Assembly: GCF_006345805.1 (NCBI RefSeq)
Contig: NC_042997.1
Location: 50,654,001-50,718,000 of the forward strand
Length of the DNA: 64,000 nt
DNA from: Octopus sinensis
Taxonomy: Eukaryota
Reading direction: 5' to 3'
In this document: positions 41,349 through 50,946 of the stretch, in pieces
Numbering within the stretch: position 1 is the stretch's first letter
How the letters are laid out: the number at the start of each line of letters is the position of its first letter
Made by a program: the position numbers and the translations under genes
Notes under the pieces: generated by a model
Databases searched by the model: none
The model's input: only the letters and a program-made list of their open reading frames with translations
What the model was told of the DNA's origin: nothing

Positions 41349-42130
41349 ATGTTTCTTTATTAGCCACACAGGGCTGCACACAGATAGAACAAATTACAAG
41401 GTAGAGCTTTTCTTTTGAAGGTTTAAAAAAAAATTAAAAAATAATAATAATAATAATAAAATAAAAAATAAAATAAAATAAAAAAGGGGGGGTCGATCAA
41501 AAGGGATCGTAAAAGGAGAGAAAGAGGACAAAAAAAGGGGGGAGAGGAAAAAAAAATTGATCAATTGGGATCGTTATCACAGAAATGTCAATATGAAGTG
41601 TAAAGGGGAGGACAGGTGAGGTTTACCCGTGGAAAGAAAAGCCTACGGAAAAGACCACGGTAACCTCGGTCAATGAAGTCACATGTTATATTTCTTTTTT
41701 ATTTTTTTGCAAATAAGCAACTCTCTGTATTAATTTTTACGGTTCATAGAATCATAGTCAAGGTGGCTTCGTCATTCATACGTGCCATCCTTGCTACATT
41801 CACCCATCTTTTTTTAAAACATTCACTAGACAAAACTTGCCTCTCTACTCTCACTTTTTTCTTCAAGTGATACTTGAAGAAGTTGATGAGAGATTGACCA
41901 GAGAGGAAAGTGTTTGTCTCTAATCCTTCAGACGCGTCCACCAGATACATTCTTTCGCCATAGCCACAAGTATGATAAAAATAGCTCTTCCTTCCCGTTT
42001 GAAGGAAGGAGGCGTGACGATATTAACGATAGACTCGGCGGATAAACCGACACGTCCCACACGTGACAGCAGTCGTTCGACATAAGCCCACAGGTGGGAA
42101 ATTGCTGGACACTGCACGATTGCGTGCAGA
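41349..42130 (-). mobile_element. 5'-truncated Tx1-clade copy 1
   Basis: [28 protein letters not shown]2 end plus 3' UTR ending CCCTGTGTGGCTAATAAAGAAACAT; GATA repeats both sides. Confidence 0.9.
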
Positions 42131-42463
42131 GATAGATAGATAGATAGATAGATAGATAGATAGATAGATAGATAGATAGATAGATAGATAGACAGATAGA
42201 CAGTTAGACAGACAGAGAGACAGTTAGGCAGATCGACAGACGGACACACAGTTAGACAGACAGACAGACAGACAGACAAACTGATAGATAGATAGATAGA
42301 TAGATAGATAGATAGATAGATAGATAGATAGATAGATAGATAGATAGATAGACAGACAAACAGACAGACAGTCAAGCAGGCAAACAGACAGTTAGACAGA
42401 CAGACAGGCAAATTGACAGACGGACACAATTAGACAGACAGACAGACAGACTAATAGATAGAT

Positions 42464-42900
42464 ATGATTCTTTATTAGCCACACAGGGCTGAACAGAGAG
42501 GGGACAAATTACAAAGTAGAGCTTTTCTTTTGGGGGATGAAAAAAGGGTGGGGTAGTTTTTCGATCAAAAGTGATCGTAAAAAAAAACGATCAATAGGGA
42601 TCGTGTGTCACAGAAATGTCATGATGTAAAGTGTAAAGGGGGAATCAGATGAGGTTTATCCGTGGAAAGAAAAGGCTACGGAAAAGACCACGGTAACCTC
42701 GGTCAATAATGTCACATGTTAACACATTTAATTGCAAGCAAGTAACTCTGTTTTACATTTTTCCGGGTTCATAGGATTAAGCTCAAGGTGGCTTCGTCAT
42801 TCATACGTGCCATCCTTGCTACATTCACCCATCTTTTTTTGAAACATTCGGTAGACAAAACTTGCCTCTCTACTCTCACTTTCCTTTTCAAGTGATACTT
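42464..42900 (-). mobile_element. 5'-truncated Tx1-clade copy 2
   Basis: Same 3' end; GATA repeats both sides. Confidence 0.9.
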
Positions 42901-42973
42901 TAGATAGATAGATAGATAGATAGATAGATAGATAGATAGATAGATAGATAGATAGATAGATAGATAGATAGAT

Positions 42974-43084
42974 AAATTTCTTTATTGGCCACACAGGGCT
43001 GCACACAGATGGGACAAGTTACAAGGTAGAGCTTTTCTTTTGGGGGATGAAAAAAACAAAAAAACAAAAGAAACAAAAAAAAAA
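42974..43084 (-). mobile_element. 5'-truncated Tx1-clade copy 3
   Basis: Terminal ~110 bp of the 3' UTR; GATA repeats both sides. Confidence 0.85.
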
Positions 43085-47259: not shown

Positions 47260-49478
47260 TCATCTCACAGTCTTCTTCCATGAGGTTTTGTATAGTTTCT
47301 TTGATGAGTACTTTTGAAATCTCCCTACTGCATCGGGGTAAAGAGATTTCAGGGTGCTGTATGCGTTCTGTGTTATGTGTATTATTTTAATGTTTTGTGG
47401 TGGTGTTGTGCGTGGGTGGTTACTTGTTTTTATGTCGTTTTCAGTTATGTTGGTGTTTGACCTAATGTGTTCCATTAGGTCGTGGTTGTTTGTGTTTATG
47501 GCTGTCAACATTGTTGGGGGGCTTGATGATGGTGTGTTTGTGTTGATGTGTTTGTTTTCTGTGGATGTTTTTGTTTCGGGAGTGGTGAATCTTCCTGCTT
47601 TGTTTATTTTCTTTTCTTTATTTTTCCCTTTTCTTCTCCCACCCTGTGGCTATTTGCCAATCTTCTGTTTCTTCTTCGTCTAAGGACAAATCAGAAGAAT
47701 CAGAGCTTGGAAGAGGGAAAATATTGGGGTCTATTGTAGACTGTGTTGATTTTGTTGTTGTTGTTGGTTGGTGAGCGTTAGGTTGTGGTGTATGCGGTTT
47801 TGGAGGTGGGGTGTGGGTATTTTGTGCTTGAGTGATTGTAGGTATTGTTGTGTTGTTTGGGGTGTCAATTTTGTGGGGAATTAGAGTAGTAATGTTTTCT
47901 TCTTTCTTCATTTCGATGAGTGTCTTTTTGGCAGATGTCCTTGGTTTGGGAGTTGGTTATTCTTGTTGTTGTTGTTGGTGGTGTTGCTTCTGTTTTTGTT
48001 GTGCAGTTGGTGTGGTTGTTTGGTTGGTGAGGTTTGTTTTTTGTTGATTTTCTGTGATTAGTCCTGTTCGTGCAAAACGTGGTGTGGGTAGTAAAGCTGG
48101 TTTATTTGTTTTTTCCGGCTGCCGTTATTGTTGCTGTTGTTTTCTTGCGGCAGATTTGCAATCTTTTTTTAGGTGTTGCTCACTGCCGCATATGTAGCAA
48201 CGTGGTCTTCTGCCATCGACGACCACATACAACTTGTGGTCTTCTGATACACATATCTGGGTGGGTATTTTCTTTATGTCCTCTTGGTTTATATGTAGTA
48301 GAAATTCTACTTTTTTTCCCACCCAGTTTTTGTGCTTCGTGACCGTGGTTCCTAAAATTGTGAAATCTTCCATTTTCACACATAAGGCCTTTACTAGCCA
48401 TAGATTGTTAGCTATTTTTGGGACATTGTTTAAAGTGATCTTAGTCACTTTCTGTCCACGATAACTTGGTGTTAGTTGAAGTTCATCTGAATGAAGAGTT
48501 AGCGTTGAGAAACGTCTTGCTAACTCTTCAGTGTGGAATACCACTTGTATGTGTGCGAACTTGTTCCACCAGGTCACATACTCTTTGTAGTTCCAGATGG
48601 GTTTCAAGCATTTTTCGATTTTGCTTGTGTTAGCCTTCTCTGGACTTTGTGTTTTCTTATTAATTATTTTATAAATAATTGTTCTTTTTTTTTTCATCTT
48701 CTAATATTTCTTCTGGTATGTTTATTTTTACTATACCATCTACTTCCGTTATTAAAATGTTCGTGTCTTTTATTTGTTGTGCAGTAAAATATACTGTTGT
48801 CTTTTTTTCTTTTATCGCCTCGGCGAAATTTGTTGTTGTTTTGTTATTGTTGTTACTGGTGGTGATGTTGTTGGCTGCAGTTGGTAAAATCGGTGTATTT
48901 GGTTTGATTGTGCAAATAGGAAGGGGTGGAAAATTACTTGCATAGTTTATCCCTGTATTCGAGCAGCTTTTGTCAATTTGTTTGGTGGTCACAGTCTTTT
49001 GTTTATTCCCTTCAGTTCTTGTTGTTGGAGTAAAACAGGTCTGAACGGAATTGTTGTTGTTGTTATTGTTGTTTTTGTTGTTAGTGATGGTGTCAGTGGC
49101 AGAAGAGACAGCCGTGGCAGCAGATGTCGAAATGGTGGCGCAATTTTTATTTTTGTTGTCATTGTTATTGTTGTTGTTGTTGGTAGTTGAGGTAGTGGAG
49201 GAGGTGGCGGTGGTGGTGGTGGTGGTGGAGGCGGTGGTGGTGGAGGCGGTGGTGGTGGAGGCGGTGGTGGTAGCAGTAGTAGTCTCGTGGTTGTTGTTGT
49301 TAGTGGTGGTGGTGGTGACAGGGCTGTTACCGCACGTGGTTGCAGCGTTCATTCGACCGTTATTCATGTTTGCACTTTGCGTGCGTACGTTCTTTTTTTC
49401 TCCTAGCGTTTCCAAACTAGGAAAATGCTGCTCCATAAAGGAACGCGACCAGCGTTCTACAATAAAATTTCTCGACAT
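47260..49478 (-). pseudogene. Tx1 ORF1 (RRM-like region + CCHC knuckle, long Thr/Asn tracts), frameshifted
   Basis: ORFs 48669-49478, 48125-48697 (DGRRPRCYICGSEQHLKKDC), 47618-47911, 47260-47511; frameshift in an A homopolymer near 48690. Confidence 0.8.
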
Positions 49479-49675
49479 TTTCTAATGTTGAGAAGAAAAT
49501 TACAGAAATGAAATGGGGTTGAAACTGCCCCTAGGGGCGAATTCCTCCCTTGGAAAAGCACTCAAACGAAAGTTGGGTGCCTTACACACCTTATTTGCAA
49601 AAATGTACATAAAAATTGGGCTATAAATAGTCAAAATAAACGATTACCTTCGGAGCCGAAGTGACAGCACGTCCA

Positions 49676-49836
49676 TAGATAGAGAGATAGAGAGATAGAT
49701 AGATAGATAGATAGATAGATAGATAGATAGATAGATAGATAGATAGATAGATAGATAGATAGATAGATAGATAGATAGATAGATAGATAGATAGATAGAT
49801 AGATAGATAGATAGACAGATAGATAGATAGATAGAT
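49676..49836. repeat. (GATA)n microsatellite
   Basis: Direct reading. Confidence 0.95.
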
Positions 49837-50182
49837 ATGTTTCTTTATTAGCCACACAGGGCTGCACACAGACGGGACAGATTACAAAGTAGAGCTTTTC
49901 TTTTTTGGGAAAAGAAAAAAAACGGTGGGATAGGTTTTCGATCAAAAGGGATCGTAAAAGGGAGAGAAGAAGAAGAAAAAAAAAGAAAAAAGAAAAAAGG
50001 AAAAGAAACAAAAGATGAATAGGGATCATGTATCACAGTGTCACGATGTAAGATGTAAAGGGGGAAGCAGATAAGGTTTATCCGTGAGAAGAAAAGCCTA
50101 CGGAAAAGACCGCGGTAACCTCGGTCAATATTGTTACATGTAACCACATTTGTTTGCAAGTGGGAAACCCTCTGTTTTAAAC
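49837..50182 (-). mobile_element. 5'-truncated Tx1-clade copy 5 (3' UTR only)
   Basis: Same 3' end; followed by (GATA)n 50183-50275 and then unrelated DNA. Confidence 0.9.
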
Positions 50183-50946
50183 AGATAGATAGATAGATAG
50201 ATAGATAGATAGATAGATAGATAGATAGATAGATAGATAGATAGATAGATAGATAGATAGATAGATAGATAGATACCTGTAGATTGATTTTATTGGCTTG
50301 TGTGATGCAAACGTATATATACTTACTTTTATATATTGTATCATTCATATATTATTTAGCAACATTTATTTATTTGTTGCCACATTAAGGAAATAATGTG
50401 GAAGATGGGGGGTGACAAGCAATAGAGAATGAATAAAAGAAAATAGAAGTAAATTAAAAGAGAGTTGAAGGATAAGGTTTATATCCCACGAATCTGAGTG
50501 GGGAAACTGCCTAAAGAGGAGTTGCGAGTGAGTGAGATAATTATAATGGGAATGGGTTGGAGTGAGCGGTTAGATTTATATTGTTTTAAGGATGAGAAGA
50601 AATAAAAATAAAGTTACTGTAATGATAAATTACGATGAGAAAGAAGGAAACCTTTGCGGAACTCGCAATTCTACAATGATTAGGGAACTTCAGAAATAAT
50701 GATAATTACGATTGAATATTTTAATGTTTTGTCACTAGTATTGTAGTGGTTCTATATTTAAGAGATGAAGAATAATGTAGTATTGTTATATTATCATCAT
50801 GGCGTTGAAATGCTCACTGGATCAGTAAAATATGTTGTATATATATAAAAAAAAAAAAAACGCTATTAAATTTGGCGGCAAGTACTTATACACTATTGTG
50901 GAGCATCATTTTCGGCAGTTGGTAAGGACTGCCACGTTTACAAATT

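Follow-up and report, generated by a model that had tools for sequence, protein, structure and literature searches.

The window analysed here, a 64,000-nucleotide stretch of the Octopus sinensis contig NC_042997.1 (positions 50,654,001 to 50,718,000, forward strand), contains an array of five copies of a long interspersed element (LINE) that are bordered by (GATA)n microsatellite tracts, which read (TATC)n on the element's sense strand. The family to which these copies belong and its apparent preference for (GATA)n are the subject of this analysis. The features of the array, including both open reading frames (ORFs) in the full-length copy and its 3' untranslated region (UTR), are summarized in Table 1.

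Table 1. Features of the LINE array, in window coordinates.
Feature	Positions	Strand	Basis or remark
(GATA)n tract 3' of copy 1	41222..41349	no strand	sequence reading
Copy 1, 5'-truncated, 781 bp, end GAAACA	41350..42130	-	ORF2 end and 3' UTR
Mixed (GATA)/(GACA) tract	42131..42464	no strand	sequence reading
Copy 2, 5'-truncated, 436 bp, end GAATCA	42465..42900	-	
Pure (GATA)18 tract	42901..42974	no strand	
Copy 3, 5'-truncated, 110 bp, end GAAATT	42975..43084	-	
(GATA)4, 151-bp non-repeat spacer (43101-43251), degenerate-to-pure GATA tract	43085..43505	no strand	
Copy 4, full-length LINE, 6.17 kb, end AGAAAGT, without poly(A)	43506..49674	-	ORF1 and ORF2 both broken
Conserved 3'-terminal ~55 nt of copy 4	43506..43560	-	homologues: 3' ends of an abundant SINE and an ORF1-only family
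ORF2 of copy 4, five pieces: APE endonuclease, reverse transcriptase, C-terminal zf-RVT	43807..47187	-	Pfam, structure match
ORF1 of copy 4, broken: low-complexity N-terminus, RNA-binding-like middle, one CCHC knuckle	47465..49478	-	zf-CCHC E=6e-4
(GATA)n tract 5' of copy 4	49675..49837	no strand	
Copy 5, 5'-truncated, 345 bp, end GAAACA	49838..50182	-	
(GATA)23 tract 5' of copy 5	50183..50275	no strand	no element beyond

The 3' ends of copies 1-5 were located on the minus strand at 41350, 42465, 42975, 43506, and 49838. Each copy ends in a common 3' motif and a subfamily-specific hexamer, followed directly by (TATC)n; in the full-length copy 4, TACC precedes the repeat. No poly(A) was found at the 3' end of any of the five window copies. 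All five 5' ends adjoin TATC units, including that of copy 5, whose upstream repeat has no donor element. In these respects the array is as described in the first-pass annotation, which had reported one full-length and four 5'-truncated copies on the minus strand, of sizes that agree with those in Table 1, repeat directly after 3' ends devoid of poly(A), and differing truncation points that abut the repeat. Its description of insertions in one tract holds in part: the copies do lie between (GATA)n tracts, but the tract is interrupted by the non-repeat spacer and by degenerate (GACA)/(GATA) stretches (42131-42464 and 43252-43400).

The genome searched (G000, 2.72 Gb) contained 8,160 exact matches to the 21-nt 3'-end motif and none to a control motif. 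TATCTATC followed within 4-10 nt in 3,038 of the 4,042 forward-strand matches, to which this fraction was restricted because the reverse count double-counts. Flanks were analysed for the first 100 motifs on contig C1, a sample not selected by similarity. Flank positions 1-4 were T, A, T, and C in 98, 97, 96, and 87 of these copies, and 79 had at least three TATC units within 40 bp of 3' flank, compared to 118 of 52,574 background windows of 40 bp on a given strand (0.22%). The 5' junction was callable for 79 copies; the remaining 21 extended past the edge of the retrieved sequence or into N. A TATC-rich 5' flank was found in 54 of the 79. Both flanks were rich in 48 copies and neither flank in 14, with a rich 3' flank alone in 11 and a rich 5' flank alone in six (odds ratio 10, Fisher p=4.8e-5). 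Truncated copies cannot carry an upstream repeat of their own, and the high proportion with such a repeat therefore supports the conclusion that the repeat is the target and not a tail. Both proportions, 79/100 at the 3' side and 54/79 at the 5' side, lie above the published threshold for target specificity, which is more than 20% of flanks in one repeat type (PMC4494074).

Among 167 distinct 3' ends examined, none had poly(A) and none had the opposite-strand repeat within the first 20 nt. At least 48,936 (GATA)n tracts in the genome have eight units or more; across the initial 6.8 Mb of C1, 100 tract starts were listed versus four element ends. Since most tracts are without an element, the family uses tracts that mostly exist without it.

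Readable target-site duplications of 10-21 bp were found at sites with distinctive sequence. All of them start with TAT exactly at the element end, with no added repeat, and the target base before TAT varies. The lengths were 15-16 bp at locus L098, 15-17 at L126, 13-16 at L066, 11-13 at L172, up to 21 at L078, 11 at L132, and 10 at L119, where an 18-bp upstream match was offset and the 10-bp match at the junction was used. A complex flank prefix was repeated upstream in nine of the 167 distinct ends, compared to 0.17 in shuffled pairs; five of the nine prefixes end at the 5' junction (L066, L078, L098, L126, and L172; lengths include microhomology). Candidate duplications at L001, L152, and L176, three of the nine, were dropped, as the repeat does not end at the 5' junction. 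Several of 14 matches in the 100-copy C1 sample were of low complexity and were not counted (control mean 3.1, maximum 8). In summary, 5' truncation, a fixed 3' end, and target-site duplications of variable length are all seen in the family. The expectations drawn from the window, that insertion is not random and that (TATC)n is not confined to the 3' side, were thus borne out by the flanks and by the off-tract duplications.

Compared over aligned columns, the window copies share 79-92% identity with one another. With substitutions counted, their closest copies elsewhere in the genome are 98.7, 92.9, 100, 98.2, and 93.7% identical for copies 1-5; copy 1 matches L159, L107, and L125 at 98.6-98.7% and copy 3 is identical to L172, whereas the top matches of copies 2 and 5 reach 92.9 and 93.7%. 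Because each copy is nearer to copies elsewhere (93-100%) than to its neighbours, the five are separate, independent insertions from several subfamilies. This agrees with the view taken in the first-pass annotation and speaks against tandem duplication. In the C1 sample, 21 of 100 copies lie in same-strand clusters within 7 kb, with 12 of 13 adjacent pairs on the same strand and one on opposite strands. Copies 7-200 kb apart agreed in strand 39 times and disagreed 12 times. Local hopping was not adopted as the cause of this long-range agreement, given that the GATA tracts are themselves strand-biased. This bias extends over megabases, with TATC on the plus strand in 35 of the first 39 listed tract starts (C1:75,078-2,054,550), and the long-range orientation of the elements agrees with it.

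Some of the fetched loci were found to be rearranged. L083 and L084 represent one tandem duplicate, and L164 and L165 (C1:28.72-28.73 Mb) one inverted duplicate; the latter two lie in opposite orientation about 6 kb apart with a common distinctive flank variant, either by inverted duplication or as an assembly artefact. Large internal deletions in L006, L021, and L218 join distant parts of ORF2 to the 3' part.

TATC units were present within 100 nt upstream of all 30 full-length 5' ends inspected, including that of the window copy; at two of them a (TA)n or (TC)n run lies in between. The last 7-11 nt before full-length elements occur in shared variants that partly follow the tree of 44 5' UTRs. 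One variant, TCTCTGTCTAT, is common to five of the six copies of one 5' UTR clade (support 100/100) and, where seen, does not recur next to the 3' ends of these copies. Judging from this pattern, a short repeat-like 5' leader is part of some full-length elements, which suggests transcription from inside the repeat. As the leader variants are partly inherited, the 5' flanks of full-length copies were downgraded as evidence for the target.

ORF2, with its N-terminal apurinic/apyrimidinic endonuclease-like (APE) domain, reverse transcriptase (RT), and C-terminal zinc-binding domain, has the layout of an APE-type non-long-terminal-repeat retrotransposon of the L1 group. Pfam searches identified Exo_endo_phos (E=1.8e-13, in L199), RVT_1 (E=6e-31), and zf-RVT (E=9e-8; both in L217). 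For ORF1, there was no match to Pfam RBD_ZCCHC3; its Atlas look-alikes include CCHC and an RBD_ZCCHC3 cluster (the latter at 0.90), which are taken as a lead only. The median pairwise distance among the 27 best-matching copies of the copy 4 subfamily was 2.5%, a value biased low by this selection, and by this measure the activity of the family appears to be fairly recent.

The endonuclease of L199, a natural copy, has kept its catalytic residues. Its structure model (predicted local distance difference test score, pLDDT, of 84) gave human L1 EN/ORF2p as the top structure match (E=4e-21), and the domain is thus predicted to fold like L1-EN. A sequence search of the PDB returned weak L1 matches only. 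In L1-EN and Tx1L-EN, the target is read by a hairpin loop (PMC1950540); this loop comprises nine residues in the present family, as in L1-EN, and 11 in Tx1L-EN and the fish relatives. The short loop therefore leaves room for pairing between RNA and target in the targeting step.

The best protein match of the family was P0001 (71%), followed by a set of proteins without names (about 39-47%). Named matches, at 34-35%, included the 'Transposon TX1 149 kDa protein' and pol-like proteins of fish. With BAC82605.1, a pol-like protein of Tetraodon, the RT shares about 34% identity. In an RT tree, the family, P0001, and 36 unnamed proteins form one clade (support 1.0), which lies outside the clade that holds BAC82605.1, BAC82609.1, and YTX2 (support 0.993). 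The tree was calculated with FastTree from 203 rows and midpoint-rooted, with no named L1, RTE, or CR1 outgroup; P0196 and P0274 did not pass the coverage filter. We take BAC82603, BAC82605, and BAC82609 to be the Kibi/Koshi deposits. On these grounds, the family likely belongs to the Tx1 clade. It appears to work like Kibi and Koshi but, if the anchors are indeed these elements, stands outside their lineage, and the tree suggests that targeting arose apart from the fish lineages.

Taken together, the family is an APE-type LINE, likely of the Tx1 clade, that very probably prefers (GATA)n in one orientation and one phase, likely by means of an endonuclease that nicks the GATA strand just after ATA. 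In the proposed mechanism, the GATA strand would be nicked at 5'-GATA^N to prime reverse transcription, and the target-site duplication would result from another nick placed about 11-17 bp from the first. Inside a tract, the duplication itself would consist of TATC units, both sides would remain targets, and same-strand arrays could build up. With less certainty, transcripts may start in the upstream repeat, and the repeat-like ends of the RNA may pair with the target, which would aid priming as well as 5' joining.

Several observations weigh against this reading. No TATC-rich 3' flank was found in 21 of the 100 C1 copies, so that about a fifth lie outside tracts; the lineage called GATA-specific in the first-pass annotation does show a strong preference for (GATA)n, but not a strict one. 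The 11 of 79 copies that are rich at the 3' side only are what a tail or read-through could also give, though one or two TATC units are present where the 5' junction lies in several of them. The 5' junctions were called automatically and a few are doubtful, such as that of L179+6969, which reached the 3-kb limit. A duplication was readable at only about seven sites, and many off-tract sites show none. The 5' flanks of full-length copies are not clean target evidence, with the last 7-11 nt partly inherited. None of the 16 full-length copies with a 3' end in reach (out of 42 5' ends from 40 stretches) had an uninterrupted ORF2, the longest ORF being 877 aa; the breaks may include assembly indels. 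Finally, the nick position is inseparable from microhomology between RNA and target.

Some of these points would also fit a repeat made by the element itself, as a tail or leader that arises from read-through or template slippage, with insertion needing only a short TAT and the tracts growing by slippage. Such an origin could account for the copies that are TATC-rich only at the 3' side, for leader variants such as TCTCTGTCTAT that track the 5' UTR tree without recurring at the 3' side of their copies, and for off-tract sites that have only TAT(C) in common. However, randomly truncated copies cannot carry a 5' leader and yet have TATC-rich 5' flanks in the proportion given above, the loci L098, L126, L119, and L132 show a duplication without added repeat, and most tracts carry no element. 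We consider an element-made repeat quite improbable. Near-random insertion with survival only in GATA tracts, or else local duplication or mis-assembly, is barely credible. Selection acts against insertions in genes, which was counted in favour of survival, and the tandem and inverted duplicates among the fetched loci are examples of duplication. Selection would, however, not give one strand and one phase (opposite orientation in 0 of 167 ends), it leaves an approximately 300-fold enrichment unexplained, and the five window copies belong to different subfamilies. The data on flanks, copy identity, and orientation of the 167 ends thus largely refute both variants.

A rather unlikely alternative concerns the agent of targeting: the repeat-like ends of the RNA might pair with GATA strands in which the nick comes from an endonuclease of relaxed specificity or from host repair of fragile repeats, with the endonuclease read-out contributing little. 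The nine-residue loop, as in the promiscuous L1-EN and compared to 11 residues in Tx1L-EN and the fish relatives (PMC1950540), is in favour of this explanation. So are the lack of poly(A) and a short interspersed element (SINE) with a homologous 3' end that lands at other motifs (TA|GGTAT), none of whose 41 ends is TATC-rich. On the other side, the 3' junction has a fixed phase at non-repeat sites too, and the staggered duplications resemble ordinary endonuclease-initiated insertion; both routes can act together. Returning to the reading of a (GATA)n-preferring endonuclease, a wider version is a tentative possibility only. It would make the family an undescribed Tx1-like lineage that gained its targeting independently of Kibi/Koshi, with a short L1-like loop and with (GATA)n serving as endonuclease target and also as transcribed leader and annealing sequence, within a clan that has one shared 3' RNA end and includes the SINE of about 99,000 copies and the ORF1-only family landing at other motifs.

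Microsatellite-targeting Tx1 LINEs have been known as a concept since 2004. Repeats described as LINE targets are (TC)n, (TTC)n, (TTCC)n, (TTTC)n, (ACAY)n, (AC)n, (TAA)n, and (TG)n (PMC4494074, PMC3812793, PMC4640811). Like the present family, Kibi on (TC)n and Koshi on (TTC)n in teleost fish, as well as crocodilian Tx1 on (TTCC)n/(TTTC)n, are APE-type two-ORF LINEs that prefer microsatellites T/C-rich on the element sense strand (Kojima 2015, PMC4494074; PMC3812793). In contrast to these targets, (TATC)n contains A, and the loop has nine residues instead of 11; the 3' flanks of the C1 sample started with TATC in 84 of 100 copies and with TTCC in one, and are thus not of the Kibi/Koshi type. 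Tx1L of Xenopus is likewise a target-specific APE LINE, and its endonuclease nicks its own target specifically (PMC1950540). It differs from the present family in that it targets a DNA transposon, has a loop of 11 residues, and has an endonuclease specificity that was shown biochemically (PMC1950540). Waldo on (ACAY)n and Mino on (AC)n are also APE-type LINEs that target microsatellites, a tetranucleotide included (PMC3812793). Both differ from the family in the repeat used and are arthropod elements, whereas the family RT matches Tx1-like proteins. Waldo and Mino belong to the R1 clade.

A repeat annotation of Octopus vulgaris lists 13 recently active L1-Tx1 families with 421 insertions (PMC13282606). 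The present family or a relative may be among them; no target preference is reported for these families in the available part of that article. Nothing on GATA targeting appears in the available parts of PMC3747384, PMC2684134, PMC4758252, PMC4824008, or PMC8869645. Literature searches found no GATA/TATC-targeting LINE; Repbase and Dfam lay outside the comparison and may hold a curated entry. The family is a known kind of element with (GATA)n as an apparently new target repeat, and it is probably a separate lineage within that kind. It would add (GATA)n to the short list of repeats targeted by APE-type LINEs; its copies number in the thousands and carry a readable insertion signature. In addition, it makes testable how an L1-like endonuclease with a nine-residue loop prefers a microsatellite, and what share falls to the enzyme and to RNA-target pairing.

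At least 20 sequencing runs, spread over six coded species labels, contained part of the 3' region of the family. On contigs of labels B, C, and E (contigs only, with no bearing on expression), the 3' end was followed by GATA units, and on one label-B contig a full-length 5' end is joined through repeat to the 3' end of another copy. A metagenome scan gave 73 mostly distant loci, whose best segments were mostly 23-44% identical, with a few short ones up to 54%; no TATC tract was present at the ends of the first 41 of them.

The SINE-like element occurs in the window as tandem 184-bp units (6955-7499, plus strand), the last ~55 nt of which are homologous to the LINE 3' end. A pattern for this end type gave 99,204 matches genome-wide. 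Several of 30 loci had clear duplications, 13-20 bp in length, and the flanks mostly started with TAGGTA or TATATA, often inside another copy of the SINE itself. The SINE likely owes its mobility to a sister LINE that has another target, and the shared 3' end points to the LINE clan that likely moves this very abundant element. It may belong to the tRNA-derived SINEs of octopus reported by Ohshima and Okada (1994). An ORF1-only element of 1.67 kb (~57815-59494, plus strand) has a CCHC knuckle, no ORF2, and the same kind of 3' end. Its protein is 28% identical to the family ORF1 and has at least 150 matches in the genome, often in tandem at ~1.66-kb spacing with repeated shared flanks. It resembles the non-autonomous 'half-L1' elements but is of a Tx1-like kind.

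Other putative remnants in the window were labelled by eye: a CR1/L2-like RT fragment, broken and next to a (TATG)n tract (~60150-61500, minus strand), an RTE- or Penelope-like RT fragment (5270-5750, plus strand), and a mariner-like transposase remnant (6100-6600, plus strand). GATA-based microsatellite markers in the host group may often adjoin the elements of the (GATA)n-associated family or be split by them.

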